The notes under the pieces: model-generated
Database searches by the model: none
What the model was told of the DNA's origin: nothing
Seen by the model: the letters and a program-made list of their open reading frames with translations, nothing else
Virus record (IMG/VR): IMGVR_UViG_3300031718_000003
Coordinates: 10,760 to 74,759 of that record
Source of the DNA: a virus
Reading direction: 5' to 3' (one strand)
Length of the DNA stretch: 64,000 nucleotides
Program-made: the position numbers and the translations under genes
Part shown: positions 1,996-47,888 of the stretch, piece by piece
Layout of the letters: every line of letters starts with the position of its first letter
Position numbering within the stretch: the stretch's first letter is position 1

Positions 1996-4221
1996 TTATT
2001 GTTCCCCTTGTGGCTGGCCCTGCTGTGCCTGCGCCTGTTGCTGTTGCGTAGCCATATCCTGCTGGTGCTGCTGATCGGTCTGCTGCATCCCCTGCTCGTG
2101 CTGTTGCTGTTGGTCGGCCTGCTGGGATTCCGCCTGGATGCCGACGTTGGCTTGCAAGAGATCGAGGCGATGCTTGATGGAACCAAATTCCAAGGCCGCG
2201 AGCTTCTGGGCTTCGGCGCTCTTAGCTGACAGCTCGGCGACGACGATATTGGTCGCGTTGTTCTGGCTTGCGATGCGTTCGCGGCTCTCGAGATCCAATT
2301 GCTTGGTCTCGATGATCTGGCTTAGCTTGTGAAGCTGCTGGGTCATCATCTGGATCATGGTCTGTTGCTGCTGCATCTGGGCCTGGACCTGCGGTGGAAC
2401 GGGGTCTTGGTCGCCGCTTTGTGCGACACCAGGGGGCATCAGGCGATCGGCGAGCTCCTGGGCTTGCGGGATGTCCAACATGCGAACCAGGATGTCAGCG
2501 CCGCGCGCCATCACCTGGGGCATGGCTTGCGCGAGTTGCATGAGTTGATCGGCGCCCTGCTGACGGCGAGAGGCGTAGCTCGGCCCGGTGCCGATTGTGA
2601 CGTCGTAGCGCGCGGGCCGGTGGTTGATGCCGATTTTGAAGATCCTCTGGACCGCGCCTTCCTTAAACATCTGGTTGATCTTGATCTGCTTCACCGTTTG
2701 GTCCGGGTTCACGATGTTCATGACCCGAGGCTCGGAGTAGACGTAGGGGATCAAGTCCAGCTTGATTCGCGCATCGTGCTTCATGGCGCGCGCCAGGTTG
2801 TCGTGATAATTGAAATGGGCGTTGTCGCTCTGCCTCTGCCGGGCATTGATTGCCACCCCGGACTTCTCCGGGGCGGGAGCGCCTAACGATGGATCAAACG
2901 TCGAGAGCGCGGCCTTGGTGTCGTCGGAAGCCGCCCTGATCGCCTGGGTGATCGCCTGGACGGCCGGCTCGGCGTTGATGCGAATCGGGGCCGGGATGGG
3001 GTCGTTCTGGTCGCCGATGTGTTTGTATTCGAGGTAGCTGAAGGCTTTGCGGTTCGCGTCCGCCCATGTCGCCTGATGGCCTTCGAGCTGGCCTTCTGCC
3101 ACGAGCCATTGCGAGATTGGCGCGAGGCCGATGGCTTCGGCTTCCTTCGACCGCATGTAGTCGTATTGCAGGTTGGCATCCTGGGCCATGCGCACCATAC
3201 CGTGCAACTGGCGTTTGCCGTCCTTGATGATTTCGCGCCCCAGTACCGGTACGAGCGGTATCCACTTACCCGGCCAATCGACCTTCTCGATGATGCCCAT
3301 GCCGGTTAATTTCGCCATTTTGACCGTACGCTTCTCCACTTGCCGCTCACCCAACTGGCGCATACCATCGGGGACTTTGTTCTTCGCAACTACCTTCCGG
3401 TTATCGAGAAGGACGACGGTTTCCAGGTCGGTTTCGACATACCAGTACTCCGCCACTCGCACGGCGCCGTTCGGGAACCACTCGGTCCGGACTTTGTCGC
3501 CGGTTGCCGAGAAATCGGCGAGTCCCGCTGCATGGGCGTCGGGGTACAGGTCTTCGAATACGTCCTTGTCGATGTCCTCGGTGACAAAGCAATAGCGCAT
3601 GTCCGAGTAATCGAACTGGTCTGCGGCCGGGTCCGGATAGACACAGAACGGGTTTGCGATGCGGCCGACGACGATCTTCTGCTCAAACGAGTCGTCTGCT
3701 TCGTACTCGAATAGAATCCTCCACCACGCCCGCCCGATCTGCACCGCAGGCTCGTAGGCGCTCATGTAGGCGATTTCGGCCGAGGAGTCCTGATCGATGT
3801 TGCGTAGGATGCCTTCCAGAATTTCCGCGGTATCTTTATCGGCGCCGGCGCCTACCGGGGAGATCCGCGCCTCGGGCGGCGATTGCCGCATGTCGTTGAT
3901 GACTTGATCGATACTCGGGCCGATCTTGTCGAACACGAGACAGGGACGCCCCTGACGCTCGGCCTTCATGACCGGGTCCCAGTGGTCGCCCGCGAGGAAG
4001 TTCAGTTCGCTTTGGGCTTTGATGCGCCATTCCGATTCGTAGGATTGGACGGTGCGGAATCGCTCGAGCGCCTGGTCGTGCAGGTCCTGATCGGCTTCGG
4101 AGACCGGTGCATCGCCCGATTTCACGCGGCTCGCAATTCCCACGGCCATCGGTTGGCGCACGCTTGCACTGGTGGCTACGGTGGCTAGGGATTGTTGGGT
4201 ATTAGGAGGAGAAGGAGACAA
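1996..4221 (-). CDS. Portal protein, P22-like
   Basis: 741 aa; motifs FLAGDHW, RPCLVFDKI, WPGKWIPLVPV, SGVAINARQRQ, RYDVTIGTGPSYASRRQ; Gln-rich C-terminal barrel. Confidence 0.92.
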   Translation of the reverse strand: MSPSPPNTQQSLATVATSASVRQPMAVGIASRVKSGDAPVSEADQDLHDQALERFRTVQSYESEWRIKAQSELNFLAGDHWDPVMKAERQGRPCLVFDKIGPSIDQVINDMRQSPPEARISPVGAGADKDTAEILEGILRNIDQDSSAEIAYMSAYEPAVQIGRAWWRILFEYEADDSFEQKIVVGRIANPFCVYPDPAADQFDYSDMRYCFVTEDIDKDVFEDLYPDAHAAGLADFSATGDKVRTEWFPNGAVRVAEYWYVETDLETVVLLDNRKVVAKNKVPDGMRQLGERQVEKRTVKMAKLTGMGIIEKVDWPGKWIPLVPVLGREIIKDGKRQLHGMVRMAQDANLQYDYMRSKEAEAIGLAPISQWLVAEGQLEGHQATWADANRKAFSYLEYKHIGDQNDPIPAPIRINAEPAVQAITQAIRAASDDTKAALSTFDPSLGAPAPEKSGVAINARQRQSDNAHFNYHDNLARAMKHDARIKLDLIPYVYSEPRVMNIVNPDQTVKQIKINQMFKEGAVQRIFKIGINHRPARYDVTIGTGPSYASRRQQGADQLMQLAQAMPQVMARGADILVRMLDIPQAQELADRLMPPGVAQSGDQDPVPPQVQAQMQQQQTMIQMMTQQLHKLSQIIETKQLDLESRERIASQNNATNIVVAELSAKSAEAQKLAALEFGSIKHRLDLLQANVGIQAESQQADQQQQHEQGMQQTDQQHQQDMATQQQQAQAQQGQPQGEQ

Positions 4222-8150: not shown

Positions 8151-8573
8151 TCACACACTCCGCGCATACTCCAGGCATCGGCTGTCATCTTGGCGTATCC
8201 GCTGCTGCGCCGCCCAGATAAATGCGCCGTGAATCTCGCGATGCGCTTTATCCCCCCGAGGTTTTACGCTCGCGAGCAGCCTCACGTCCTCAGGTTTCAT
8301 CGCCGCCACCTGGTCGTGGGCGAGCTGAAATACGTCGGTCGGCTCCGGCTCACGAAAGCTGAAGCCTTCCATGCGCACTGGCTCGTACACCCACTTGGCG
8401 GAGCCACTAGCGGCTTCGGCTAGAACCGCCTGCGCGGTTGCGGTCGAGAACCGGCTGTCGAGCAGCATCTGGGTGTAAGTGTAGAATAGCCAGTGCGATC
8501 GCTGCCATTCCAGCTCCTGAGCGATCAGGCTGACACGGGTTCCGCGCGTGAAGGTTGGATTTTTTTGTCGCAT
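8151..8573 (-). CDS. Hypothetical protein
   Basis: 140 aa ORF in operon orientation. Confidence 0.45.
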   Translation of the reverse strand: MRQKNPTFTRGTRVSLIAQELEWQRSHWLFYTYTQMLLDSRFSTATAQAVLAEAASGSAKWVYEPVRMEGFSFREPEPTDVFQLAHDQVAAMKPEDVRLLASVKPRGDKAHREIHGAFIWAAQQRIRQDDSRCLEYARSV

Positions 8574-8584
8574 TCGCAGCAGTT

Positions 8585-8824
8585 TTAGCCGGGTAATTTG
8601 GGTTCAGCGGCGACGGTGGCCGCCTCGGTTTCGGCGATTGTCGAGTGCGCGTTGAAGTCCTTGCTCATGACGCCCATGGCGGCAAGGCCGCCTACCATTG
8701 CGTATTTTGAAATCGCAACGAGCCAGGGCATATGCACGAACAGCTCCGGGGAGAACACTACGAAACCGAAGCTCGCAGTGATAACGGACGTTACCGACGT
8801 CTTCCAGTTCTTCCAGAGGTTCAA
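8585..8824 (-). CDS. Small two-TM membrane protein (holin-like)
   Basis: C-terminal part of the listed ORF (probable TTG start at 8824): WKNWKTSVTSV...two hydrophobic segments...SKDFN. Confidence 0.5.
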   Translation of the reverse strand: MNLWKNWKTSVTSVITASFGFVVFSPELFVHMPWLVAISKYAMVGGLAAMGVMSKDFNAHSTIAETEAATVAAEPKLPG

Positions 8825-9261
8825 ACTGAGGCCTCGGCAAGAACCAGTGCCATGGAATACAACTGGCCCGGCGATACCTCGCGCGCCAGGAAGCCGGGGA
8901 AGATTCCATCCTGTTGCAGCGCGAGCACGCAGGAACCCGAGCACATCAGATCGTTGCGCTCGTCGGGGAGAAACGGCAGCGCAAACCCGATATCGGCGGC
9001 CCAGTCGTAGCCACGGCCGGTCTGAGCCTGCGCCCATGCGCGCACTGGAGCTTCGGGATATTTCGACGGGATCTCGACAAAGTCCCAGAGCTTGTCTGAT
9101 CCGTCGAACGGCAAAAGGTTCACGGCGGGCGTTTTTTCCGCGCGCGCGCTGAACGCCACACCATCGGTAAACACCAGCTCTACGTGCGAATAGGGGGAAT
9201 GCGTGCCGTATTCGATGGCAACCGACAGGATGCCGGCGCCTTTGTGGAATGCCAGTTTCAT
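8821..9261 (-). CDS. Permuted papain-like (NlpC/P60, YiiX/YebB-like) amidase
   Basis: SPYSHVELVF (His), GRGYDW and LMCS (Cys) in permuted order; probable start MKLAF at 9261. Confidence 0.75.
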   Translation of the reverse strand: MKLAFHKGAGILSVAIEYGTHSPYSHVELVFTDGVAFSARAEKTPAVNLLPFDGSDKLWDFVEIPSKYPEAPVRAWAQAQTGRGYDWAADIGFALPFLPDERNDLMCSGSCVLALQQDGIFPGFLAREVSPGQLYSMALVLAEASV

Positions 9262-9436
9262 TGGAATTTGCCCTAAAATGGAAGAATCTGTGGCCCTTTG
9301 TCGCGGCCAGTGTTCGGGAGACACTGACACAATAAAACACAGATGAGCAATCGCATCGAATCGAACGCGGGAAACAACCTCTTCCCAAAGCCTAGTGGGC
9401 GAGCCGTCTTAATCGGGCCGGACGGCTCCAGGGCAT

Positions 9437-9637
9437 TCAAACTTTTGGATGCTGCTCCCGAATCTCAGCCTGGAAGAACTTTCCTTTCGAACCGGATTCC
9501 AGAAATCGCTTGACCTTCGCGAGTGGAATTATATGCCTGCTGACTGCGCCGCTATGCCAGTGAATGCGGACCTGGTTGGTTGCGGGATCGTGCTCGATCG
9601 CCTGGATCGCAGAGGAGTCTACGGGATGGAAGTTCAT
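9437..9637 (-). CDS. KTSC domain protein
   Basis: PVDSSAIQAIEHD...FLESGSKGKFFQAEIR, 66 aa. Confidence 0.8.
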   Translation of the reverse strand: MNFHPVDSSAIQAIEHDPATNQVRIHWHSGAVSRHIIPLAKVKRFLESGSKGKFFQAEIREQHPKV

Positions 9638-9912
9638 GAGGCACTGTCGCCGCGCGCGGCATCAGCCATCCGCTTCTTCCAGTAGGTGACGACAAACTTG
9701 ACCATGGACTCGCCAGCGATGCCGAGGAGTGCGCGTGCGCGGCTTACCTGCACCTTGACCGTAGCCACCGAAGTGCCAAACCGCTCCGCAATCTCCTGAT
9801 AGCTCAGGCCCTCCTCGCAGATCAGTTTGATGATCTCACGCTCGCGCGGGCTGAGTCCGCGCTCGTGTTCGCCGGTACGGCCATCCAGGCTGATGCGCGC
9901 ATCCCCTATCAT
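9634..9912 (-). CDS. LuxR/sigma-region-4 HTH protein
   Basis: LSPREREIIKL...GLSYQEIAERFGTSVATVKVQVSRAR. Confidence 0.85.
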   Translation of the reverse strand: MIGDARISLDGRTGEHERGLSPREREIIKLICEEGLSYQEIAERFGTSVATVKVQVSRARALLGIAGESMVKFVVTYWKKRMADAARGDSAS

Positions 9913-10202
9913 TTTACCGGCTCGACATACTCGGCGGGCATCAACCGCACGCGGTTCGCGATGATTTGGCCGACGTGATTCACTTTAGCGGGAATCTCAA
10001 TGTGCGCGAGGCCGTTCTCGATCTTGATGAGCTTGCCGATTATTTCCATGCTCGGGTCGAACGCTGTGGGACCGCGGTAGCGCACGGCATCGCCGGGCCG
10101 GAGATGCGGGTGCAGGATGAGATTCTTGACGCGCTCGGCTTCGCCCGCCTGGCGCGCCGTCCACAGTTCGGCTTGGGTTGGGGCTACCATAGATCCATCC
10201 AA
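9909..10202 (-). CDS. Hypothetical protein
   Basis: 97 aa, stop overlaps the next start. Confidence 0.5.
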   Translation of the reverse strand: MDGSMVAPTQAELWTARQAGEAERVKNLILHPHLRPGDAVRYRGPTAFDPSMEIIGKLIKIENGLAHIEIPAKVNHVGQIIANRVRLMPAEYVEPVK

Positions 10203-10290
10203 ATAAAAGACGGGGCCTTGCCTGGCAATTGATCGCGGATGGCTCGTTCGGACACTCTGCGCCGACGGCAGGTAGGGCGGAAGCCTAACG

Positions 10291-11721
10291 TCACGTCATC
10301 CAGCTCCGATCCCCGCCTGGCACATGGACAGCCGACGGCCTCGGCTGCGGCTTCGATGTCAAAGTTTTCAGACCCGTGGTGGACAGGACGTACCGGACGC
10401 AATCCATCAAATGGTCGTTTTTCTTCACGATCTTGCCCTTCTCGTCCCGATGATAGCGCGAGATCTCGCGGCGAAAGTTCTGAAGATGCTCCTGAACCTT
10501 CAACCTCCCCGATACCAGCCGCTCCCACACGATTTGAATGCCGGTCTCGACAGCGTTCTCACAGGGATGGAGCATCAGACCGGCCTTGCGGTAATGCTCC
10601 ATCAGAGAACGGCCATCCACCTGCGAGCTTTGGAGGCAGCCGGGATCGACTACGCCATGTATCCACTCGCCCCTGGCGCGGATCGCCATCGCGTGGGAAG
10701 CTGGCTCGCCGGCGCTTTGATAGTGTTCGTCGTAGAGGACCAACTGCCCGTTGCCGGGATTCTCGGCCGCCCACAAGGCCGCCGTGAGCCGCCAGCCCAC
10801 ATCGAGTGCATAGACGCGCCGCCAGGAGGCGGGAATGGGCGCGGTCTTGATCAGGAAGTCCTCTTCCGGCAGGGGATAGATGGCGCCCGCGCCGAGCGAC
10901 GGCTCGCCGAGTGTCCGCGCTTTGATCTGGTAGGCGGGAGTCGTGGCAATCAGGATGTCCTTCTCCGCCTGCTCCATGTGCGGAACGTCCTTCCAACCGG
11001 CCTGTATCCAGAATTTGTGCGCCGCGGCGCCTTCCTTCGGCTCCAGAAATCCGGTTACAACCTCACTCATGCCCTGGAGCGGCGTGAAAGTGGTGTAGAG
11101 AATCCCGCGGGTTGTGACGGTGCGAAACAGGATCTCGGTATAGATGTCCTCCGGAGGCTCTTCGTCGAGCCATGCGAAGTCCAGTGAGACTCCCTCGAAG
11201 CTCTTCCGGCCCTGCTCGTAGGTCTTCAGCCCAACGCTCGACCAGGCGCCAGAGACGTGCTTTACCCAGATCGTCTCGATCGATCCGCTGAGACCTGAGC
11301 GGCGCGGAAGCGTCTTCACGATCCGGTCCGCCGGGATCATGCCAGTGCCCTGCGCTTCGAGTGTGCCTGCGAGTTTGAACTGCACGATATTGCGAGTGCT
11401 CTCCGAGGTCGTGCCGCACGCCCAGCCCGCGGTAGGTCCACTGAAGCGCTTCCCCGTCCACCACACCGGATAATTTCCAGTTAGATGACAGGCGGTCTCG
11501 TACGCGCCCGCATCTGACTTCCCGATGCGATTCGCGGCGCAGAATAATCTTTCCTTGTACGTCGCGCCGGCGGCGAAGAATTCGAGCTGCTTCGGATAAA
11601 GCGCGCGCCGGCGCGGCCCCGTCTCCGGGAAATATCCCCGCCACTTGTTGCGCTTCTGGAAGTCCAGGGCCGCCTGAATGGTGCCCAGATCGACCATGTC
11701 CGGTAAGCTGACAACGGTCAC
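10291..11721 (-). CDS. terL: Terminase large subunit
   Basis: Walker A AANRIGKS, Walker B AWLDEEPP, coupling motif TTFTP, nuclease motifs ALDVGW and NDHLMDCVRY; probable GTG start at 11721 (ORF track extends to 11832). Confidence 0.95.
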   Translation of the reverse strand: MTVVSLPDMVDLGTIQAALDFQKRNKWRGYFPETGPRRRALYPKQLEFFAAGATYKERLFCAANRIGKSDAGAYETACHLTGNYPVWWTGKRFSGPTAGWACGTTSESTRNIVQFKLAGTLEAQGTGMIPADRIVKTLPRRSGLSGSIETIWVKHVSGAWSSVGLKTYEQGRKSFEGVSLDFAWLDEEPPEDIYTEILFRTVTTRGILYTTFTPLQGMSEVVTGFLEPKEGAAAHKFWIQAGWKDVPHMEQAEKDILIATTPAYQIKARTLGEPSLGAGAIYPLPEEDFLIKTAPIPASWRRVYALDVGWRLTAALWAAENPGNGQLVLYDEHYQSAGEPASHAMAIRARGEWIHGVVDPGCLQSSQVDGRSLMEHYRKAGLMLHPCENAVETGIQIVWERLVSGRLKVQEHLQNFRREISRYHRDEKGKIVKKNDHLMDCVRYVLSTTGLKTLTSKPQPRPSAVHVPGGDRSWMT

Positions 11722-12143
11722 TAGCCTCCCGAGTCCGCAATCGCCTCGCGAATCTGTTGCGCCGCGAGGCCGGGCCACTGCGCTTCCGGCATCCGCACGT
11801 ACGTCCATGCGTCGAGGCCGGCAATGCGCCACTGCCCGCGCGGCGTCTGGTAGAAATATTGCTCCGCGTTTGCCGAGTAGGGTCCCGTTCCATAGGGATT
11901 TTCAGCCTTGATCTGCCCGTTCCCGAACGTTTCAGCCATATACTGGGCCGTCGCCTCGGTCGCAAAATACATGGGATTCAGGCCCGTCGATTGCCCCGTC
12001 TGTGAATTGGTTACCGCCGGCACGATGAACGTAGGGACAAACGGAGGCGCAACCGGAGCCGCGCCCGGCGTGGGAGCAGGCGAGGGCGCAGGTCCGGAGA
12101 TCTCAAATGGTCCCCAGGTGGGGGGCGGCGTGGAATTACTCAC
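11721..12143 (-). CDS. Hypothetical Pro-rich protein between terS and terL
   Basis: 140 aa, AAGGA RBS upstream, stop overlaps terL start. Confidence 0.6.
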   Translation of the reverse strand: MSNSTPPPTWGPFEISGPAPSPAPTPGAAPVAPPFVPTFIVPAVTNSQTGQSTGLNPMYFATEATAQYMAETFGNGQIKAENPYGTGPYSANAEQYFYQTPRGQWRIAGLDAWTYVRMPEAQWPGLAAQQIREAIADSGG

Positions 12144-12223
12144 AATGTGTTTTCCTTTTTTGCTTCGTGGTCAGTAGACTGCGCTCTCAGCGATCCGCCG
12201 TTTGCGTTCGGACCCGTCAAGAG

Positions 12224-12408
12224 ACTCGAGGTGCAGTTTTCCCTTGCATTTCCACTGATTCCCATTTAGACTGTAAAGCGTTGATAGAGCGCAGTTTATG
12301 TGAAAATATTTCATTGAACACTTATCGCCCCCCGATAAGTGTTCCGTTCGATTTCCCAATGTTTTGGCACTTTGTCGATTTGCGCTCGGCTGGGCATAGA
12401 AAAACAGG
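12224..12408. repeat. ~185-bp near-identical copy of 30018-30202 (AT-rich, origin-like part of the replication gene)
   Basis: Direct sequence identity with a few substitutions. Confidence 0.95.
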
Positions 12409-12426
12409 AAATCAGCGTTGTCTTTA

Positions 12427-12463
12427 GTTGCAATATCCAGCTCACGGAAGAAGGTAGTGAGAC
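12427..12463 (+). CRISPR. Solitary CRISPR repeat (GTTGCAATATCCAGCTCACGGAAGAAGGTAGTGAGAC)
   Basis: 36/37 identical to array repeat variant 51201-51237; abuts the terS stop codon. Confidence 0.95.
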
Positions 12464-13045
12464 TCAGCTTCTGCTTTGCGCTCTCATCAGTTTCTGCTTT
12501 GCGCCCTCAAGCTCCTCTGCTGTAAATAGCTCCGCGAGCGCCGTAACGGCTACTGGGATCGCTTGGCCGCCTGGTCCGCTCAGTTCTTTGCGATCCACCC
12601 AGTCGCCCATCTCGTGCGCCACCTGTTCCTCGTGGAGGCGCATCTCGCGCAGTATCCCGGTATCGACGAGGAACTCTTCTACGACTTGGCTCTCATCGCC
12701 CGCGCCGATCGACTTCAGTTGGCAGATAACCAGCCCGGTGCTGCCGCCTGGCGCTTTGCCGGCCAGCTTCGCGGCACGCTCACGGACGACCTGGTCCATG
12801 AGTGCGAGCCGCCGGTTCAGCCGCGCGAGGCGAACTTCCTTGACCGCAGCGCCGGACTCCTTCACGCGCTTGCGCCATTCCCCGACCCAGTGGTCCACCT
12901 CGCGGGCGAACTCCGGGGTGGCCTTCCAGCGTTGGATCTGCCGCGCGCTCACTCCGAGCCGCTTGCCGATTTCATCGTTCGTCAGGCCGCCGAGCGACAC
13001 CATGCGCGCGGCTTTGTAACGCGTTTTATCCCAGGCCCAGTCCAC
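12464..13045 (-). CDS. terS: Terminase small subunit (N-terminal HTH)
   Basis: LTNDEIGKRLGVSARQIQRWK HTH and C-terminal ELSGPGGQAI motif; upstream of terL. Confidence 0.8.
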   Translation of the reverse strand: MDWAWDKTRYKAARMVSLGGLTNDEIGKRLGVSARQIQRWKATPEFAREVDHWVGEWRKRVKESGAAVKEVRLARLNRRLALMDQVVRERAAKLAGKAPGGSTGLVICQLKSIGAGDESQVVEEFLVDTGILREMRLHEEQVAHEMGDWVDRKELSGPGGQAIPVAVTALAELFTAEELEGAKQKLMRAQSRS

Positions 13046-13049
13046 GAGT

Positions 13050-13254
13050 TAGCGCACCCGGGGCACAGACCCCATCGAGCCACTGAAGATGCCGAAGACA
13101 CTCAGCAGCCACAGCACGACGCAGATGATAACCACGACGTTCAGGAAGTTCTTGATGGGCGGGGCCATCGGAATTAGGGCGCATGTCATTCAAGGTCATC
13201 CCACAAAAGCAGCACTATGACGACCAGGGTGATGATGAGACTGATAATCGGCAT
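13050..13254 (-). pseudogene. Frameshifted Thivi_2564-like small membrane protein
   Basis: MPIISLIITLVVIVLLLW, then a stop and frame change, then IPMAPPIKNFLNVVVIICVVLWLLSVFG in another frame. Confidence 0.55.
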
Positions 13255-13301
13255 GGCTTTTTTGTTCCTTTTTCAGACATTCCCATTTAGACTGTAAAGC
13301 G

Positions 13302-13338
13302 GTTGCAATATCCAGCTCACGGAAGAAGGTAGTGAGAC
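13302..13338 (+). CRISPR. Second solitary CRISPR repeat, identical to 12427-12463
   Basis: Exact 37-nt copy. Confidence 0.95.
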
Positions 13339-13341
13339 TTT

Positions 13342-13740
13342 TCAGACCTTGGCAGTTTCCGCCGGCAGCATGGGAAGTATGATCGGCGCCGTATCTCCCG
13401 GGCTCAAAGCAACGAGTTTGGCCATTCCCTGTCGCAGCAATTCCATGCGAATCGTTTCCATCAGCACCATCTGATGTGTCGCGGCTTGGCGGGCGAGCTC
13501 GGCAACCTCCTTGGCGGACGTCACCGCTGTTGCGTTGACAACGGTCGCGGCTTCGAGACGGTTCATTTGGTCCTTCAGGCTCGAGCCGGTATCCGTTTTG
13601 AATTCCATCGCCATCGCGAGAAGCACGGGATGCAGCCTGGCGACCACGCCGAGAAAACTAATCAGCTTCCAGAGCGCGGCAAAAATAGCGATTGTGCTTA
13701 CAGCGCAGCCAGCGACCGCGGCTAAGGTTACCCAGTTCAT
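13342..13740 (-). CDS. Membrane-anchored hypothetical protein
   Basis: N-terminal TM segment and a GSSLKDQMNRLE motif, as seen in phage lysis-region membrane proteins. Confidence 0.6.
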   Translation of the reverse strand: MNWVTLAAVAGCAVSTIAIFAALWKLISFLGVVARLHPVLLAMAMEFKTDTGSSLKDQMNRLEAATVVNATAVTSAKEVAELARQAATHQMVLMETIRMELLRQGMAKLVALSPGDTAPIILPMLPAETAKV

Positions 13741-14286
13741 TCACTCCCTCCCCACTGGCTGATCTTCGCGCGGTGAGCCATCCGCCGTTTGCGCCTGAAC
13801 TGTTCGCTACCATCTAGATAAGGCAGCGCGAGCGCCGCCGCACGCAGCCCGAAAAAGAAGACGGCAACCACCACGATGACAACAACGTCAGTCATTCTCT
13901 GCCCAACCGGTACTCCGCCATCCCCAGCTCGCAGACGACCGACATCTTGCGGCACAGGACTCCCAACCGTATGAGCACCTGCTCATGCGGTAGGCGCCGG
14001 TATTCGGCGTCAGACGCGGCCACCCTGATCTCGGCGCGCAGCATCTGGAAGCGTGCAAGCAGTGACTCCGCCGGAGGCTCGTAGTCGCGCGAGAAGGCCG
14101 CAGCGAGCTCCGCGGCTTCGCTCTCGTCCTGCGCCATAGATTTCACTGCGCTTAAAGCGGTCATCGATCGCCCGCGTCCTGCCTTCGTTTTGGGCTGCGC
14201 CCGCATCGCTGAAAAAGGAGAGTTGCGCTCGGTTCAAAATCGCGATATGCTCTTTCGGTCCGCGTCCCTCGCGAAGGACTACGGCA

Positions 14287-14928
14287 TCACTTATCGATGT
14301 CGATAAGTGACTGGCTGGCCGCGCCCGCGCCTCTTTGGGGATCTGACACGGTAAAGCCGGTCCCGCGCCCGCCGAGCGCTACGGCTGTTTCACAGTCGTT
14401 CGCGCCAACTCGCACCACGTCGTGATCACGGACCAGAAGCTGGTACCAAGCGGGCATTCCCGCGGGCGCTTTCTTCTGCGCCAGTGGCAGCAGCGTGTTG
14501 AGCACCCCGGCTGCTACATTGCCCGTCTTCACCAGCGAGGGCTTCGCTTTTACGACGTCCAGATTCATCAACGCAGCCAGGCCCGCCGCGGCGTAGGAGC
14601 CATACGCAAACGCCTGCGCCCAGAACGACTGTGTCTCGACGGTGGCTAGCAAATCGTTGGCTTGAGTGTTGATCAGAAAACCTATACCGTGCGCGGCCAG
14701 CTCCTGGTATATCTGGCCCGCCGGAACGTCCTGCTGCCCGCACGCCACAACGTTCCAGACTGTGTAACTTGGCTGATCTTCGCGCGGTGAGTAGGTACGG
14801 CTGACCGCGCCAGGCACGGGCATACTGGTCGCGACACGCGGCTCTGGCGGAAGCTTCACCGCCGCGCGACGCGCGATACACGCGGTAAGAGCCAGCAACA
14901 AAATAGGAACGAATGCGCGACGACGCAC
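14287..14928 (-). CDS. Putative lipoprotein
   Basis: MRRRAFVPILLLALTAC lipobox-like signal. Confidence 0.6.
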   Translation of the reverse strand: MRRRAFVPILLLALTACIARRAAVKLPPEPRVATSMPVPGAVSRTYSPREDQPSYTVWNVVACGQQDVPAGQIYQELAAHGIGFLINTQANDLLATVETQSFWAQAFAYGSYAAAGLAALMNLDVVKAKPSLVKTGNVAAGVLNTLLPLAQKKAPAGMPAWYQLLVRDHDVVRVGANDCETAVALGGRGTGFTVSDPQRGAGAASQSLIDIDK

Positions 14929-14931
14929 CGC

Positions 14932-15294
14932 TTAGAATTTATCCTTGTCTTTCTCGATCCAGCCCGGATCGGAGAATAATTTCCGCCACGCTTGCCTCAC
15001 GATGTGCGCTTGCTTCGCGTTGAACGTGCCCTTGGCTTCGAGCTCGTCTTTGAGACGATTCATTTCGGTCGCAACTGCGTTGAACTTCACGCGGAACTGC
15101 TCGAGCGCGTATTCGGTGGCGCGCCTGTTGGCTTCGCTGCTTTCGGATCCCCGATCCTGGAGCATCCGCGCAAACGCCTGGCGGTTGTACTCCACATCCT
15201 GTTGCGCGGTTTCCTGGTGGACCTGCTGAGCCAGGATGCTCGACGACACCAGCAAAACAAAGCAAGCGGCAACGCGAATAGCGGTGTGTGGCAC
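14932..15294 (-). CDS. Secreted hypothetical protein
   Basis: Signal-peptide-like N-terminus, helical body. Confidence 0.55.
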   Translation of the reverse strand: MPHTAIRVAACFVLLVSSSILAQQVHQETAQQDVEYNRQAFARMLQDRGSESSEANRRATEYALEQFRVKFNAVATEMNRLKDELEAKGTFNAKQAHIVRQAWRKLFSDPGWIEKDKDKF

Positions 15295-15582
15295 GGGGCA
15301 CGCTGAGGAAAAGTGGAATTGGGACTCAGGAAGATTTAAGGCAGGACGTTGCCGCTAGCCTGGGGACGGTCAAGTACAACAAACGTCACCATCGGCCAAA
15401 TAGTGTCGAGCGTCAGGACGCTTTCCAAGCCGGTCCATCCGTCCACGTAATCCACCGGGCCCAGATCGTGCCGCCTGGTGCGCAGATGAATGCGTTCCCG
15501 TGTGAATACTCCGTTTCGCCGGATCGTCTCGCGCCCCACGACGCCCACGTCGCCGGCGCTGAAAGCGGTCCGCTGATGACTG

Positions 15583-16107
15583 TCAACGTGCATGAGCGGC
15601 GCGCGCGTCCCTGCGGACGGGAATGATTTCAACGTCGGAAACATCGACTTCAGTTGACGCGCCGGAACGCAGCAGATCGATCGCTATAACCAGCCGATGC
15701 TGCTTCTTAACACGAATAAGAACGCCCTCCAGGCCTTCGAGGGGTCCGCGCTTCACCCGTACGCGCGTGCCGGCCGTGAGTCCGGCGTCCCCATGGACCG
15801 GCTGCGGGGAGCTCATGAGTAGACGAAGCGCTTCAATCTCGCTATCCGGGATCGCTTCGATTTCCATGCCATGCCCCAGAATACGCGAAACTCCGCTGAT
15901 TGAGAGCACGCTTACGCGCTGGTCGGCGGTGTCGGCAAATTGGCAAAACAGGTATCCGCGAAACAGTGGGACATCGACGAGGAGCTCGCGGCGCACGATC
16001 TGGATGCACGGAAGGAAGACGCCTAGCGCGGGCTTGCGGGTGATTTCGACAGAAACGCGTTGCTCGCAGTTGGAACGGGTCTGAACCGCATACCATCGAC
16101 TCAGCAA
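15583..16107 (-). CDS. NusG paralog (RfaH/UpxY-like antiterminator)
   Basis: WYAVQTRSNCE, PLFRGYLF (NGN domain), GTRVRVKRGPLEGLEG (KOW); upstream of late genes. Confidence 0.92.
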   Translation of the reverse strand: MLSRWYAVQTRSNCEQRVSVEITRKPALGVFLPCIQIVRRELLVDVPLFRGYLFCQFADTADQRVSVLSISGVSRILGHGMEIEAIPDSEIEALRLLMSSPQPVHGDAGLTAGTRVRVKRGPLEGLEGVLIRVKKQHRLVIAIDLLRSGASTEVDVSDVEIIPVRRDARAAHAR

Positions 16108-16306
16108 GGCAGCGCTTCGCCCCTTTCATTGCAAGCACGATCCGGTCATTTGGATATATCGGCAGGGAGGGGTACGTTGTCCCAAAATCCAAATGCTTAT
16201 GGCTTCGGGGTGAGTCGTTGTCGCACTGAAGCCGTCCGCCGTTTGCGCCTGATCACTCGAGCGCGCAAAGAACCAGGGCGCGGAGGGATAGCCAAAGCGG
16301 TAAGCG

Positions 16307-16939
16307 CTACTTGATATTCTGCGCCAACCGCGCGAGCGCGATTGCGGCAGGTGTGATCGCCGTTCTGTGGGTGGCCGCTCCCATATCCACGCCGTACGTA
16401 GGGTCCATCAGTGGATCACCGACAATGTGCGGCACGCCGAGGATGTGCCCGACTTCGTGCGCCATGATGGTGTACGCGTCCATTCGGTCTTGATCCAGGT
16501 TCGTGACTACAATTCCGCCATTCGTCGCGCACGCGATGGATTGCGGGCAGGCACAATTGTTTCGCAGTAGTTTCGGCGCCTTGATCTTTACCCCTAACGC
16601 AATCTCCCAGTCGCGCGTGGCTGTGGTGACCGCTTGGCGCAGCGTCGGGTCGAGTATTTCGTCTTCGTAACACACCTGGTCATAGAGCACCGAGAACACG
16701 CGAGCAGGAGCAAACAACGTATTCCCGCCCACCTCCGCGAATACGCCCACCGTACCTTCATTGCGCATTTCTGTCCTCACGTGGTGGCCCCACGCGACGA
16801 ATATCGCCGCGCAGATGAAGGCACCCGGAGGCGCCAGGAGCGCCACCAGCACGACGCAGTAGTACGCTCGGCGGCGGCGTTGCTCGCGACGCTTCTCGAC
16901 AAACTGTTGCACCGTCCAGGTGTCGAAATCGTGTTTCAC
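16307..16939 (-). CDS. Membrane-anchored metzincin (matrixin-like) metallopeptidase
   Basis: HEVGHILGVPH zinc motif followed by LMDP Met-turn. Confidence 0.75.
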   Translation of the reverse strand: MKHDFDTWTVQQFVEKRREQRRRRAYYCVVLVALLAPPGAFICAAIFVAWGHHVRTEMRNEGTVGVFAEVGGNTLFAPARVFSVLYDQVCYEDEILDPTLRQAVTTATRDWEIALGVKIKAPKLLRNNCACPQSIACATNGGIVVTNLDQDRMDAYTIMAHEVGHILGVPHIVGDPLMDPTYGVDMGAATHRTAITPAAIALARLAQNIK

Positions 16940-17151
16940 TTCGCCTCTTTAAACTTTCGGAACCGCGACATTTGCGGACGGAAGGGACAAATTTCCGCTT
17001 CTGCCGATATTAACGATGGTAGAACATTGTTAACCGGAAAAGGTTGACGGCCCAACTTTCGCGTTTCGCCGATTTCCCCGGTTTGGCGCGGCGTTGAGCG
17101 GTTTCCGCCACCGAAGCGCTACTCTCAAACCAAACAGAACGGAAGGGCAGA

Positions 17152-17796
17152 ATGCCATCCAAAACCAAAAACATTGACCAAAACAGCCCTATTTCAGCCC
17201 CAGTCGAACAGAATTGTCAAACTGTACGCCTCAGACGCCGAAGTTCGCCGGAACCGCCGAAACACCTCTCTCCTACGCAGCTCGAGGATCTGTTCCGCGT
17301 GATCTACTCGAAACGCGACGAGGCCATCTTTCGCATCGTCTATTGCAAAGCCCTGCGCGCGAGCGAAGTCGGCCGCCTGGAACTCAGTGACTGGGATGAA
17401 CGCGAGAAGATGCTGAGCGTACATCGACTAAAAGGATCTCGCTCGGCGGCCTTCGCGATGCACGACAAGGAGCTGCGCGCGCTGCGCGCCTGGCTAAAGG
17501 TCCGCGGCCGAGCGCCGGGCCCGCTGTTTCCCAGCCGCAACCATCGCCCAATCTCGCGCATTCGCATCTGGGAACTGATGCGGCAGTACTGCAAAGAAGC
17601 TGGCATCCCCATGCGTCTCGCACATCCGCACGCGCTCAAGCACTCCCGCGGCTCACACTTACTCGAGGAGACGGGCAAGATCCACGTGGTGCAGGACGCG
17701 TTAGGACACAAAAGTATCGCGTCTACGATGATCTACGCGCAAGTTTCCAACCGCGATCGGACGGAGGCCATAGCGCTCAATCGCAATAAATACTGA
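17152..17796 (+). CDS. Small tyrosine recombinase, FimB/FimE-like
   Basis: 214 aa catalytic domain only: LRASE (R), RLKG (K), HPHALKH (HxxK variant), LGHKSIASTMIY (H,Y). Confidence 0.9.
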   Translation: MPSKTKNIDQNSPISAPVEQNCQTVRLRRRSSPEPPKHLSPTQLEDLFRVIYSKRDEAIFRIVYCKALRASEVGRLELSDWDEREKMLSVHRLKGSRSAAFAMHDKELRALRAWLKVRGRAPGPLFPSRNHRPISRIRIWELMRQYCKEAGIPMRLAHPHALKHSRGSHLLEETGKIHVVQDALGHKSIASTMIYAQVSNRDRTEAIALNRNKY

Positions 17797-17812
17797 TGCG
17801 CTCACTTTTCTC

Positions 17813-17841
17813 TTGACGCTGTTTGCGCATTCTGCTATGAT
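17813..17841 (+). promoter_or_regulatory. Sigma70-like promoter TTGACG-N17-TATGAT
   Basis: Near-consensus hexamers with 17-bp spacing, upstream of + strand ORFs 17895 and 18170. Confidence 0.65.
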
Positions 17842-17894
17842 ATCTTTGTGATCGAGAGATCAAAAGCCCGAATCCATCGGGCGGGAGAAAGAAA

Positions 17895-18134
17895 ATGAAA
17901 AAAACGTGGACTATCAACAACGGCTGGAACCGGCTTAACAATTGTGGCCAGATGATTCTTTGTGAGGTCGGCCCGCGCGACTTCGACCCAGACTGGGAAC
18001 GGCACGAACAGAATGCTGCAGCTGGTGTGCATACAGCGCCTTACGTAAACAAAGGAACCGCCTACGTTTTCGCGAGAAAGCGAGACTGGGAGGCCGCTGT
18101 CGAGTACTTGCGCGCGAACGGGTTTCTGGGCTGA
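17895..18134 (+). CDS. Hypothetical protein
   Basis: GGAG RBS, downstream of the promoter. Confidence 0.6.
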   Translation: MKKTWTINNGWNRLNNCGQMILCEVGPRDFDPDWERHEQNAAAGVHTAPYVNKGTAYVFARKRDWEAAVEYLRANGFLG

Positions 18135-18169
18135 CTGGGCTGACTCAGGAGAAAGAGGAGAAAGAAAAA

Positions 18170-18424
18170 ATGAGCCAAACAGAAACAAACACAAGATGTG
18201 CGCGCATGAAGAAGATCGGCGGAAACGAGTTTTTCTCGACATTGCGCGGAGCGAAAAGCGCCGGCAAGCGAAGGGGCTATGCGAGTGGCGCGAAAATTCT
18301 CGACACGGAAGAGGGATTCTGCCTTTTAGCTTTAGGGGAAGGCGCAAGCCAACGGTCTTATAATCTTCTGCGCCACTCCTCGACCATCGCAGAAATGCGC
18401 AATGGACGTTGGGAGGAATACTGA
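18170..18424 (+). CDS. Hypothetical protein
   Basis: GAGGAG RBS upstream. Confidence 0.6.
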   Translation: MSQTETNTRCARMKKIGGNEFFSTLRGAKSAGKRRGYASGAKILDTEEGFCLLALGEGASQRSYNLLRHSSTIAEMRNGRWEEY

Positions 18425-29477: not shown

Positions 29478-30675
29478 GGGGTTCCTTTCTCATTTGCCGC
29501 GCGTAGAGAATCTGCATCGCTTCCTGGTTTTTACCCGCTGCCCTTCCGCCGCGCGGATCCGGCGGAATTGACTCCCATTGCCGGTTATCGATCATGTCGC
29601 TCAGGGTGGGTTTGCAGAATTGCCAGCCTTTTATATCCCAGTACACGGCCCATGCAGCGATGCCGGATTCAATGTCATCGAGACGCACGCCGAGTCTGAC
29701 CGCATCGCGAATCATCGTCTGGCAGGTATCGCGGCTGGCCCGGCGTCCAGCGCCGGTTTTTTTCCAAGAACGAAAGAGCTTGTCGAAGCGTGTCCGAAAT
29801 TCCGGGTCGGAGAGTGTAGGCCGAGGGGGGGGGAATTCGCCGCCCCCCGCTTGCGGGGGGTAGGGGGGTTTCTCCTTAGTAGTTACAGTAGTCACATCCT
29901 TATATGTAGTTATCGGGGGGAGAAAGTGTTCGAGGGTCTTTTCGATAAGTGATGCGACCCCGGCTTCGATCTCTTTTTCGATAAGTGATCGCTTATCGAT
30001 TTCGATAAGTGATGGTAACTCGAGATGTAGTTTTCCCTTGCATTTCCATTGATCCCCGTTTAGACTGTAAAGCGTTGATAGAGCGCAGTTTATGTGAAAA
30101 TATTTCATTGAACACTTATCGCCCCCCGATAAGTGTTCCGTTCGATTTCCCAATGTTTTGGCACTTTTTCGATTTGCGCTCGGCTGGGCATAGAAAAACA
30201 GGCGTGTAGGAGAGCCGGGGCCACCTCTCGATCCACGGCGAATCTCACCGTCTTCGGCCATCGCCGTCAGCTCTGCGGACACGTTCGGCAATAGAATCCC
30301 CGTGTCTCTCGCGGCGTCCTGTGGCCCGGCGGGGACTTTCGCCAACTTGCCTTGCCGGTTGACGAGTTTCATGGCTGTCCGGCCGTGAAAGCGCGGCACG
30401 CCGGCCTTTGTGATGGAGTGCTGAATACTTCCGATGCCAACCGTGGCCAGAGTGAACCAGGCGCGTAACCGCTCCCGCCGGGAGCATAGGGGACTGCGCA
30501 TGATGTATTCCGCCCGGCGGCGGATGTCCTGAAAATAGCGTCCGGCGTCAAGCCCTAGATCTTTCGCGAGCACTTCATCGCGAGCGAGCCCCAGGCGCCG
30601 TAGCCAACTGGGATGGTCGGGCCCTTCTTTACCGACGGGTTTTCTTGCCTGGCGTTCCGCGGCGGAACCGAGCAT
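29470..30675 (-). CDS. Phage replication initiator-like protein
   Basis: wHTH-like N-terminal region, internal iteron-like repeats, KEKPPYPPQ linker, C-terminal FDKLFRSW...NRQWE domain. Confidence 0.7.
   Translation of the reverse strand: MLGSAAERQARKPVGKEGPDHPSWLRRLGLARDEVLAKDLGLDAGRYFQDIRRRAEYIMRSPLCSRRERLRAWFTLATVGIGSIQHSITKAGVPRFHGRTAMKLVNRQGKLAKVPAGPQDAARDTGILLPNVSAELTAMAEDGEIRRGSRGGPGSPTRLFFYAQPSANRKSAKTLGNRTEHLSGGDKCSMKYFHINCALSTLYSLNGDQWKCKGKLHLELPSLIEIDKRSLIEKEIEAGVASLIEKTLEHFLPPITTYKDVTTVTTKEKPPYPPQAGGGEFPPPRPTLSDPEFRTRFDKLFRSWKKTGAGRRASRDTCQTMIRDAVRLGVRLDDIESGIAAWAVYWDIKGWQFCKPTLSDMIDNRQWESIPPDPRGGRAAGKNQEAMQILYARQMRKEPRG
29941..30138. promoter_or_regulatory. Putative replication origin (iterons plus AT-rich tract)
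   Basis: TTCGATAAGTGAT at 29941, 29977 and 30001; palindrome GAACACTTATCG-N5-CGATAAGTGTTC at 30110-30138; inside the initiator gene, as in lambda O. Confidence 0.65.
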
Positions 30676-32635: not shown

Positions 32636-33163
32636 TCACGCGATTCGCGCGAGCAGGCTGTCATCGAGCATCGCGCACAAACGCCGGTCACCCCCAACCG
32701 GAGCGCCTTCCAGCTCCATCTCGAGGAATCGGAGCACCCTATCCCGCGCGCCCTCGTAGTCGAACGGAACAATGTGCTCGGGATCGGCGCGTAGTTCCCG
32801 GACCGCTATCGGCCGGATGGCCACAGCCCATTCATAGCCCGTGGCACGCACCTGGGCGAGATCGCGAAACTCGCGCCGCTCGCGGTCGTAGCGCCACAGT
32901 ACCCAGAGATATTCCCGCCCGCCAGCGGACCCGGCATATTCGAGCAGAATCGCCGGCTCCGGGAGTTCCACTCGCGGGATGGCGTCGCCAGGCCGTAGTA
33001 CTTTACCCTCGAAACCGAACCCGTCGAACGCTTTCGGATCGACGCGGGACAGTACTTTGATCCAATCGCCCGCATGGCGTTTCCGCGCCGACCGCGGCAG
33101 CCGCACATCGTCTTCGCGGCAGATCGCGCGTCCGCGGATAAAGGGTTTGGGACTTATATACAT
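32636..33163 (-). CDS. Hypothetical protein
   Basis: Probable start MYISP with GGAG RBS. Confidence 0.55.
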   Translation of the reverse strand: MYISPKPFIRGRAICREDDVRLPRSARKRHAGDWIKVLSRVDPKAFDGFGFEGKVLRPGDAIPRVELPEPAILLEYAGSAGGREYLWVLWRYDRERREFRDLAQVRATGYEWAVAIRPIAVRELRADPEHIVPFDYEGARDRVLRFLEMELEGAPVGGDRRLCAMLDDSLLARIA

Positions 33164-34272
33164 GACTCCCCGAGCCTCTGTATAGATTCTGCCGATGCTC
33201 CGACAGCGCTCATCCCGAGCGCAAGGTGATTCAAAGCTGCGTTGTGATCGCGTCCAAGCGTTAGCCCGCAGGCGCACGCGTGCGTTCGTTCGGCGAGCGT
33301 CTTAGGAACGATCTTTCCGCAGCCAGAACACTTCTGAGATGACCGCCATGGATTGACCGGCACAGCCCAACGCCCAGCTTGTTCGGCTTTGTACGTCGTG
33401 CACCAGATCAATACTCCCCAGGCAGCATCCATGATCGACTTTGCAAGATTCGACCGCGCCATGTTGCGAATCGTTAAATCCTCATAGGCGATCAAATCGT
33501 AGTTTGAAACCAGCCACTTTGAAACGTGATGAATGTAATTCAGCCGGGCATTCGCAGCTCGCTGATGAGTACGCCGCAGCGCTTCACGGGCGCGTACGCG
33601 ATTCTTTGAGCGTTTCTGCTTACTGGATAGAGACCGGCTCGCCGCCGCAATCCGGCGCTCGTGTTTCCGGGTCCAGCGCGGATTCTCGATGGCCGAGCCG
33701 TCGCTGAGCGTTGCGAGTGACGTTAAACCTACGTCGATTCCAACAGGATTCGAGACGGCGCACTTATCCGGCGCGGGGCCGGCGTCGCACACTACCGATG
33801 CCGTCCAGCGCTTGCCGCCGCGCTTGATCGAACAAACCTTCGCGCGCCCTTCAATCTTCCGGCCGCCGCGCGCGCGTATATCACCAACGTTGGGAATCTT
33901 AATGGACTTCTCCCGGCACACTGGGAGACCGAACGCGAAGGAATCGTAGCGCCGCCAGGATCGGAAGCGTGGAAACCCCGGCTTTTCGCCGGCCTTGCAT
34001 CTCCGGAAGAAAGCTTTGAACGCCCGGTCCAGCCGCCGTAACGGGTCGCGTTGGATATCGCACGCCATCCACTGGAATGCCGGATCTTTACGCAACTCCG
34101 TCAGTTCGTCCTGTTGATCGCGATATGTGATGCTTTTTCGGGCCATGCGCCAAGCGTCCCGTCTCTCCTGGAGCGCTGCGTTGTATGTCTCGCAATTGTC
34201 AGTCAGGATGCGTTCCAAGGCTGCCGTTTGCGCAGCATTCGGACGAAGACGGAATTGAAATGTCCTCAGCAT
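33154..34272 (-). CDS. tnpB: TnpB (IS200/IS605 family RNA-guided nuclease), no tnpA nearby
   Basis: MLRTFQFRLRPN HTH, GFPRFRS, RuvC motifs VGIDVG / IAYEDL / RDHNAALN, Zn ribbon CSGC..CACG. Confidence 0.95.
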   Translation of the reverse strand: MLRTFQFRLRPNAAQTAALERILTDNCETYNAALQERRDAWRMARKSITYRDQQDELTELRKDPAFQWMACDIQRDPLRRLDRAFKAFFRRCKAGEKPGFPRFRSWRRYDSFAFGLPVCREKSIKIPNVGDIRARGGRKIEGRAKVCSIKRGGKRWTASVVCDAGPAPDKCAVSNPVGIDVGLTSLATLSDGSAIENPRWTRKHERRIAAASRSLSSKQKRSKNRVRAREALRRTHQRAANARLNYIHHVSKWLVSNYDLIAYEDLTIRNMARSNLAKSIMDAAWGVLIWCTTYKAEQAGRWAVPVNPWRSSQKCSGCGKIVPKTLAERTHACACGLTLGRDHNAALNHLALGMSAVGASAESIQRLGESCI

Positions 34273-39739: not shown

Positions 39740-39919
39740 CCGGGCGCGGGAAGCGGTATGGTTTCCTGTATCCGATTAACGACGACAACATGATCAACCG
39801 GCCCTGAGCACTTATCGGCGTCGATAACTGATAGTGTTCGGGGCCGGGCTTCGGTCTTTAATTCCTGCATTTTGCTTCGCTCCTTTTCCCCCCTGTAGGG
39901 GAATCTCTGTACCGCAACC

Positions 39920-39949: not shown

Positions 39950-39987
39950 GGAAAAACTGCGGAGCTGCTGCGCATAAAAACCTTGCA

Positions 39988-40016
39988 TTGCTGAGCGAAC
40001 CGGCTTAGCATATACT
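39988..40016 (+). promoter_or_regulatory. Rightward sigma70-like promoter overlapping a palindrome
   Basis: TTGCTG-N17-TATACT; imperfect palindrome TGCTGAGC...GCTTAGCA; ATG at 40025 suggests a leaderless mRNA. Confidence 0.6.
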
Positions 40017-45710: not shown

Positions 45711-45793
45711 TCCGCTCTATCAGCGGGCGTTCGTTTGCGCCTGATCCCTCGACCACAGGAGCGCAACAGTTAAAATGAGGGAGATTAGTAAAA

Positions 45794-47530: not shown

Positions 47531-47888
47531 CGATTTGCGGAGCCGTTGCAATACCCAGCTCACGGGCGAAGGAAGTGAGACAATCAGTCCGGTTGGTCCC
47601 GATTCAGTCCCGATTCAGGGTTGCAATACCCAGCTCACGGGCGAAGGAAGTGAGACGATAGACACGGCAGCATCGAAAACGACACTAAATATGTTGCAAT
47701 ACCCAGCTCACGGGCGAAGGGGTAGTGGGGTCTTTTGAATTTCCACCGTCTTGATTTTCAGTCATGCTGGAATTGTGATTCCTCCGGCGTTTCCTCACTT
47801 GCTGCCTCGCTTTCCCGGCGTCCCGTGGCGCTATCCGCGACCGCTCCCGCAGGTATATCCTTGGAAGGCTCCAAGGAGAGCAAGAGCC

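Follow-up and report, generated by a model that had tools for sequence, protein, structure and literature searches.

Why would a phage that encodes its own CRISPR effector and array carry two further copies of the repeat, each standing alone, some 34 kb away and on either side of a terS-like gene? The question is raised by IMG/VR virus record IMGVR_UViG_3300031718_000003, a 74,759-bp record from soil that is 91% complete; bases 10760–74759 of it form the stretch analysed here (64,000 nt, the window, to which all coordinates refer). We call the two solitary repeats R1 and R2, and the DNA directly to the right of each its would-be guide. The evidence below indicates that R2 arrived in a recent insertion of a short unit joining part of a promoter-like site to the repeat, and leads us to speculate, tentatively, that both repeats are stand-alone genes for CRISPR RNAs (crRNAs) which would use the adjoining phage DNA as guides against sister phages. 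The argument turns on the following elements.

12427–12463, plus strand: R1, Cas12m-type solitary repeat, abutting the stop codon of the terS-like open reading frame (ORF) 12464–13045; 57.2 bits with the repeat model
13302–13338, plus strand: R2, solitary repeat identical to R1, ending 3 nt before the stop codon of ORF 13342–13740
12464–13045, minus strand: terS-like gene, 193 amino acids, between R1 and R2; HTH_23 domain and PHROG terminase small subunit
13049–13254, minus strand: small membrane gene of the Thivi_2564 family, frameshifted, its two halves in different frames
13342–13740, minus strand: gene X, 132 amino acids, with an N-terminal transmembrane segment; its last codons are antisense to the would-be R2 guide
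45794–47530, plus strand: cas12m, 578 amino acids; PDB 23vw, 'CRISPR-associated DNA-binding protein Cas12m', E 6e-110 over residues 4–548
47545–51962, plus strand: CRISPR array with 20 repeats, of which one is split by an insertion sequence (IS); its first repeat lies 15 nt after the cas12m stop codon

The 37-mer GTTGCAATATCCAGCTCACGGAAGAAGGTAGTGAGAC has exactly two exact copies, R1 and R2, both on the plus strand, compared with 0.00 expected from 100 shuffles. The first-pass annotation had reported them as identical repeats beside stop codons of minus-strand genes, enclosing terS and a frameshifted membrane gene, and our analysis agrees in each respect. It also agrees on their likeness to a variant repeat in the array, which begins 34.2 kb away: R1 and R2 match the array repeat at 51201–51237 in 36 of 37 positions, the single difference being A29T. 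Against the array consensus GTTGCAATACCCAGCTCACGGGCGAAGGAAGTGAGAC the match is 33/37, with differences at positions 10, 22, 23 and 29; all four lie in columns that are variable in the repeat family, and every invariant column is kept, as is the 5-bp stem. We built a covariance model from 20 repeat variants, comprising those of the phage array, a 35/37 copy in contig L037 (see below) and the distant arrays of loci L016 and L275, and ran it unfiltered over the whole 74.8-kb record (cmsearch, E up to 10). The matches were the array, R1 and R2, with no further copy, full or partial, none within 100 bp of either solitary repeat, and none in degenerate form some 36 nt downstream of R1 or R2. Both lie between ORFs, and in four features of the SRUFinder definition (a full-length repeat match, no other repeat within 100 bp, an intergenic position, a viral genome; PMC10651486) both correspond to solitary repeat units (SRUs). 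They are separated by 838 bp of genes, or 1.1% of the genome, instead of one or two spacers of normal length, and we reject a virus-borne mini-CRISPR array as a description of the pair.

R1 and R2 have the orientation of the array and of the cas12m strand and are antisense to the late genes. The only stable element of the repeat is a 5-bp stem, CUCAC/GUGAG at -23..-19/-7..-3, which ends 2 nt before the downstream DNA, with G(-24) opposite A(-2). The scaffold of Cas12m2, in which a G·A pair and a stem at -22..-17/-8..-3 stand directly 5' of the guide, is similar in its pair, its stem and its 2 nt before the guide (PMC10442227). The layout of a type V-M crRNA is thus present at both solitary repeats, with the scaffold 5' of the guide, the stem beside the guide and the polarity of the array. 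Because R1 and R2 share this polarity and layout, the DNA to their right occupies the guide position. Both stand 34 kb from cas12m, yet their cognate effector and array are in the same genome. We found no structure above shuffled controls around R1 or R2 on either strand, and no Rfam family at the gathering score. A role as terminator was rejected; the hairpin of the reverse complement has -4.4 kcal/mol, lacks a U tract and is no better than shuffles. Within the repeat family, C10U and G22A covary in R1, R2 and repeat 51201, and repeat 51410 has U10/G22. The paired change would preserve a pseudoknot-type pair of the 5' part with the loop; the L037 copy (C10/A22) breaks this pair, and the evidence for it is weak.

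How did the repeats come to lie there? R2 bears the marks of an insertion, as follows.

13279–13301, plus strand: 23-nt motif ATTCCCATTTAGACTGTAAAGCG fused to R2, with a -10-like box TAGACT at 13288–13293, 8 nt before the repeat
13270–13278: left copy of the 9-bp duplication TTTTCAGAC
13339–13347: right copy of TTTTCAGAC, which holds the gene X stop codon and starts the would-be R2 guide

The 23-nt motif and R2 together form a 60-bp unit, and the perfect 9-bp duplication lies flush on both of its sides. There are only 3 occurrences of the 9-mer in the 75-kb genome, two of them these flush copies. When the unit and one copy of TTTTCAGAC are removed in silico, a compact minus-strand junction results, in which the gene X stop codon is followed by AAAAGGAAC and, 21 nt on, by the ATG of the membrane gene. 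The pair is a target-site duplication, which means that gene X and the membrane gene adjoined each other until the unit came. Taken together, the identity of R1 with R2 and the perfect state of the duplication indicate that the events are recent.

The agent of the insertion is constrained by the same anatomy. Integration of the Cas1-Cas2 type duplicates a site of repeat length. The R2 insert is 60 bp long and includes the repeat itself, and the duplication is just 9 bp, so that ectopic integration by Cas1-Cas2 is rejected. The first-pass proposal that the repeats are scars of ectopic integration accordingly stands in one part, R2 being an insertion with a perfect duplication, and falls in the other, the inserted unit being a promoter fragment plus repeat rather than a Cas1-Cas2-type product. 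An IS or a miniature inverted-repeat transposable element was likewise rejected for the unit; the duplication is present, but the ends ATTCCCATT and GTCTCACTA are not inverted copies of each other and do not resemble the IS termini GGTAGTGGGGTC. A resemblance of GGTAGTGAGAC to the IS end GGTAGTGGGGTC has the wrong orientation for an IS terminus and was judged coincidental.

Around R1 neither a 9-bp nor a 23-bp duplication was found; TCAGC alone is common to both sides, which is weak. Directly after R1, the 3' end of terS carries a 23-nt tandem duplication (21/23) at 12464–12509. Its second copy provides the in-frame terS stop codon, and in its absence the terS frame would continue for about 100 codons through R1 and the 185-nt segment described below.

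The 23-nt motif also recurs exactly at 12258–12280 and, with two changes, at 30052–30074. It is the 3' (-10) half of the site CTTGCAT-N17-TAGACT, which links the solitary repeats to the following features.

12243–12272, plus strand: promoter-like site CTTGCAT-N17-TAGACT, 146 nt upstream of R1 (from the motif end)
30037–30066, plus strand: second copy of this promoter-like site
39982–40011, plus strand: promoter-like site CTTGCAT-N17-TAGCAT in a divergent control region; it heads the plus-strand operon that contains cas12m
12316–12344: perfect 12-bp palindrome of the family CACTTATCG..CGATAAGTG, situated between the 12243 site and R1
12224–12408: 185-nt segment duplicated at 30018–30202 with 97% identity, carrying the promoter-like site and the palindrome

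The window contains 3 matches to the pattern CTTGCAT-N16-18-TANNNT, each of them on the plus strand, compared with 0.22 expected. The sites at 12243 and 30037 are copies of each other, and the 3 matches therefore represent 2 independent sites. The box shared by R2 and the site upstream of R1, which is of the class found at the head of the cas12m operon, makes it plausible that transcription runs rightward across R1 and perhaps as far as R2. An associated trans-activating crRNA was considered and rejected, as a putative 80-nt RNA behind the 12243 site pairs with the repeat no better than shuffles do.

The palindrome family CACTTATCG(N0-4)CGATAAGTG is also represented at 14286–14311, 29977–30013, 30110–30138 and 39806–39832, the last of these in the divergent control region at 39.8 kb; these palindromes are probably operators of a phage regulator and not terminators. 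In the duplicated 185-nt segment the same minus-strand frame is open in both copies, and the copy at 30018–30202 lies within a 401-amino-acid ORF, next to three iteron-like repeats TTCGATAAGTGAT (29941–30013). A further recurrent feature is a bipartite element of about 49 nt, present in more than 30 copies between 1472 and 63848 and consisting, in the sense direction, of GGCGCAAACGGCGG, about 28 variable nt and GACCCCGAAG. On both strands it stands a short way upstream of many ribosome-binding sites (e.g. 12157–12206, 45696–45742 and 51978–52025); it matches no Rfam family, and occurs also in IMGVR_UViG_3300025921_000053, in at least 15 copies.

The array supplies another connection to the terS region. 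Only one of its 18 spacers, 50958–50994, matches the phage's own DNA above shuffled controls; the target is terS 12975–12939 (minus strand, 36/37), between R1 and R2. The single mismatch, a synonymous one (GAC/GAT), falls at guide position 2, and the 5' flank of the protospacer is GAACG. PmCas12m requires a protospacer-adjacent motif (PAM) 5'-YTN, uses a guide of about 17 nt, and loses its activity through a single mismatch within 12 nt of the PAM (bioRxiv 10.64898/2026.03.26.714355). If the present orthologue behaves like PmCas12m, the phage would be immune to its own terS spacer and the spacer would fit the terS of a sister phage. The residues by which PmCas12m contacts the PAM could not be mapped onto the numbering of PDB 23vw. 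That the self-protospacer should fall between R1 and R2, in 1.1% of the genome, is a coincidence that needs explanation.

Two further spacers were examined and dismissed. The 27-nt spacer 51383–51409 ends in TTTTCAGAA, like the R2 duplication, and its best match in the genome is at chance level, which does not make it a second self-targeting spacer. The 21-nt spacer before repeat 51201 needs a gap to be aligned with the 23-nt motif's 3' part, and it scores no higher than another spacer does. These unusually short spacers (51180–51200 and 51383–51409) each precede one of the two array repeats with T10, as in R1 and R2; the pattern may reflect recombination of solitary-type with array repeats, and the similarity tests are at chance level. 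The array is interrupted within one repeat by the following element.

47721–50795: IS1-family transposon, 3,075 bp, inside one CRISPR repeat

The inverted ends of the transposon (GGTAGTGGGGTCTTTTGAATTTCC) are perfect and 24 bp long, and its duplication (GGCGAAGG) measures 8 bp. It carries a DDE_Tnp_IS1 transposase gene (48698–49546, minus strand) and four passenger ORFs, and owing to it the distal 17 array repeats may no longer be co-transcribed with cas12m.

Could the arrangement be an artefact of assembly, one of the outcomes that the first-pass annotation named as a refutation? In the Logan contigs of the source run every junction is present, without differences and at an even depth of about 10–14. 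The individual spans (8400–12294, 12265–12408, 12379–12456, 12435–12967, 12938–13331 and 13310–18400) have depths of 6–14, and breaks occur only at repeated 31-mers, namely in the 185-nt duplicate, in the repeat and where the spacer matches. An alternative path through the identical repeats would yield a genome without terS and an 875-bp circle, and would split the TTTTCAGAC duplication. Because that path loses terS and breaks the duplication, we consider a chimera very unlikely. Two other soil studies contain fragments of this phage at a depth of about 2–4x. No contig of the runs joins across an empty site; contigs drop rare variants, and this is no evidence of absence.

Relatives of the phage are scarce. 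Searches of IMG/VR with the repeat core, the hairpin pattern, terS and Cas12m peptides, the terS protospacer, the 3' end of gene X and the 23-nt motif gave no close relative. The bipartite element gave one relative, IMGVR_UViG_3300025921_000053, which has no repeat and no cas12m within the examined 62%. INPHARED and PLSDB contain no DNA match, and TerL is at most 49% identical to that of cultured phages. At the protein level, identical proteins are found on a 91.6-kb ENA contig and a 97% variant of gene X on a 2.1-kb ENA contig. Among 185,579 species genomes and 241 million metagenome records we found no array that carries this repeat core, and the phage's own system is consequently the only known cognate one. 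The matches to the repeat core in these collections are chance 18-mers, distant arrays (at locus L016 the repeats follow cas12m on the same strand) and one other solitary copy. The latter, L037:2323–2359 (minus strand), matches R1 and R2 in 35 of 37 positions and lies on a 3.3-kb forest-soil contig otherwise dissimilar to the phage; it is intergenic, antisense to the flanking small ORFs, and has the same GGAAGAAGG loop.

These results lead us to speculate that R1 and R2 serve as stand-alone genes for crRNAs, with guides taken from the adjoining antisense DNA and aimed at sister phages lacking the insertions, a possibility that we put forward tentatively and as short of an even chance. R2 would have arrived as the 60-bp unit, half promoter and repeat, at the stop codon of gene X. 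Both repeats would be transcribed rightwards and the RNAs trimmed by Cas12m, giving guides antisense to the last codons of terS for R1 (UCAGCUUCUGC...) and of gene X for R2 (UUUUCAGACC...). At the home loci the end of the repeat, GAC, would fill the PAM position and the phage's own DNA would be spared. Where a sister phage lacks the insertion, the R2 target would be preceded by ordinary DNA (TTCCT in the reconstruction), and binding would be possible. Cas12m attaches to DNA but does not cut it, and it blocks transcription or replication (PMC11013384). With the guides of R1, R2 and the terS spacer it could cover a 1.3-kb stretch upstream of terL and act as a roadblock in the packaging operon of a rival. 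The minus strand carries the genes from 1 to about 39.7 kb, including those listed below, and the plus-strand gene block begins near 40 kb and has cas12m as its last gene.

1996–4221, minus strand: portal
10291–11832, minus strand: TerL
15583–16107, minus strand: NusG-like protein

A homologue (P0004) of the terS-like product carries PF03592. In the membrane gene, the 39-amino-acid ORF 13052–13168 matches only positions 24–51 of the 51 in the Thivi_2564 model (37.3 bits, cut-off 33); the N-terminal transmembrane part is in the other frame, and the frameshift separates the two transmembrane halves. Short stretches about 80% identical to this gene occur on other contigs of the same soil samples.

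Support for stand-alone guides comes from the orientation shared with the array, the intact stem and a promoter-like box of the class found at the cas12m operon, on account of which we favour those first-pass options that made the repeats mini-guides or processing sites in an antisense RNA; the function itself is predicted from sequence features. The position of the self-protospacer in the 838 bp between R1 and R2 points the same way, and a precedent is offered by archaeal-virus mini-arrays, where sister viruses are targeted, the carrier's own locus is point-mutated and the targets lie near repeat loci (PMC6858448). Several observations weigh against this interpretation. R2 has the -10 half of the promoter-like site alone, with a poor -35 region, and the strong palindrome between the 12243 site and R1 may block or terminate transcription, which is itself a prediction for both repeats. 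The reconstructed empty site of R2 has CCT and not YTN, the PAM of PmCas12m, which is another orthologue; the empty site of R1, under the weak model of a 5-nt duplication, has AAA. The R1 and R2 guides match nothing else in the genome except the adjacent 21/23 tandem copy, and the uninserted sister phage that they would target is inferred. Finally, since the insertions are recent, the intactness of R1 and R2 is no sign of selection.

A more general form of the idea, which we consider rather improbable, is that the promoter-plus-repeat unit is a mobile guide-maker whose landing turns adjoining phage sequence into a Cas12m guide. The occupied site would be spared, since the repeat replaces the PAM, and the empty site of sister phages would be bound. 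Cas12m systems lack adaptation genes. If the unit works in this way, a CRISPR system without Cas1-Cas2 would gain anti-kin guides by insertion of a repeat and not by acquisition of a spacer. This would amount to a second route to CRISPR memory, in which a repeat inserts beside a conserved gene and the sequence of that gene becomes the guide, and to a use of a non-cutting effector by phage against phage at the packaging operon.

It is also conceivable, if unlikely, that R1 and R2 are neutral recent scars, left when a transposition-like event or a repair event placed copies of a repeat-bearing fragment, without function, at two intergenic positions where inserts are tolerated. The perfect 9-bp duplication and the 100% identity attest a recent origin, and only the roughly 10 nt between the stop codon and the ribosome-binding site could accept an insert, in which case the position at stop codons may be survivorship. 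The region is a patchwork, with its 185-nt duplicate, 23-nt tandem duplication and frameshifted gene, and the genome has several candidate agents: the IS1-family transposon, an HNH endonuclease gene and a TnpB-like gene.

33154–34272, minus strand: TnpB-like gene, PHROG 506, E 1e-91, which shares the phage with Cas12m

Functionless scars are harder to reconcile with the unit's lack of inverted ends and of similarity to IS termini, with the retention of all invariant positions and of one orientation in both R1 and R2, and with the independent third solitary copy in L037; landing less than 500 bp from the sole self-protospacer would be a coincidence of 1–2%. Another reading, which we regard as improbable, makes the transcribed lone repeats decoys that titrate the Cas12m of rivals, of hosts or of the phage itself, the downstream sequence being irrelevant. 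Viral SRUs often lie directly downstream of a promoter, many are RNA anti-CRISPRs (Racrs), and a non-targeting crRNA is equally inhibitory (PMC10651486); phage terS is, moreover, evidently a target in Cas12m warfare, as the 36/37 spacer attests. This option of the first-pass annotation is weakened by the lack of any cellular genome or metagenome array with the repeat in the collections searched. With the phage's own Cas12m as the only known cognate effector, a decoy would blunt the phage's own weapon, and it leaves the placement at gene ends beside the self-protospacer unexplained. If R1 and R2 are decoys or scars, the case still documents the movement of a repeat unit with target duplication in phage genomes.

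The remaining alternatives place the function within the phage's own cycle or its exchanges with kin. An antisense RNA from the 12243 site across terS and gene X could be cut or bound by Cas12m at R1 and R2, with products that pair with late mRNA and set the timing or level of terS expression. The promoter-like site with its downstream operator-like palindrome does face the late operon in antisense direction, the repeat is where Cas12m processes its own pre-crRNA (PMC11013384), and the would-be guides are perfectly complementary to late mRNA. Cas12m is known, however, as a DNA binder and not for RNA targets, an antisense RNA has no need of a CRISPR repeat, and the absence of structure above shuffled controls around either copy on either strand gives no encouragement; such self-regulation thus seems doubtful to us. 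The idea that the 37-bp repeats are recombination handles, by which sister phages exchange the terS cassette, for instance to escape a terS-targeting spacer, is highly improbable. The cassette does hold the protospacer, and its copy has the synonymous seed change. Exchange, however, needs identity between genomes and not between the ends of a cassette, direct repeats within one genome would delete terS, and gene X and the membrane gene, as the 9-bp duplication shows, adjoined each other until R2 arrived.

The stand-alone guides that we tentatively favour have parts in common with several known systems. SRUs and Racrs (Faure 2019; Camara-Wilpert 2023, PMC10651486) are likewise single full-length intergenic viral repeats with, as at R2, a promoter-like box upstream. 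They are described without cas genes, and usually match the system of the host, whereas here the cognate Cas12m and a 20-repeat array are in the phage; mimicry of a host CRISPR repeat, which defines Racrs, is not seen at R1 and R2, since no array with the repeat core occurs in the sampled genomes and metagenomes. The crRNA-like regulators (crlRNA, CreA, tracr-L, scaRNA; bioRxiv 10.1101/2023.03.03.530964) are comparable in that a stand-alone repeat would give a crRNA-like RNA. Those regulators are located within or beside cas loci and pair in part with a promoter, whereas here the sole partial target is the adjacent 21/23 tandem copy.

With type V-M crRNAs (PMC10442227; PMC11013384; MvCas12m, bioRxiv 10.64898/2026.09.14.751636) the solitary repeats share the repeat family, polarity and stem, which are those of the phage's V-M array. 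Canonical crRNAs are derived from arrays, whereas R1 and R2 are solitary, 34 kb away and antisense to late genes. The preprint on MvCas12m, which is called the first phage Cas12m, makes no mention of solitary repeats (bioRxiv 10.64898/2026.09.14.751636). The virus-borne mini-CRISPR arrays (Medvedeva 2019, PMC6858448) are similar in their sister-virus guides, point mutation of the own locus and targets near repeat loci. They differ in being repeat-spacer-repeat structures that use the Cas proteins and the adaptation of the host, whereas in this phage the repeats are single, the guide would be the phage DNA next to each repeat, and the phage itself encodes the effector, which does not cut. In its logic alone, the arrangement is like the TnpB omega-RNA of IS200/IS605 elements, where the guide is the DNA flanking the inserted element, which leaves the occupied site immune and makes the empty site the target. 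IS605 makes no target duplication, inserts beside a fixed motif and carries tnpB, whereas here a 60-bp unit lies between the two copies of a 9-bp duplication and the effector is encoded elsewhere in the genome.

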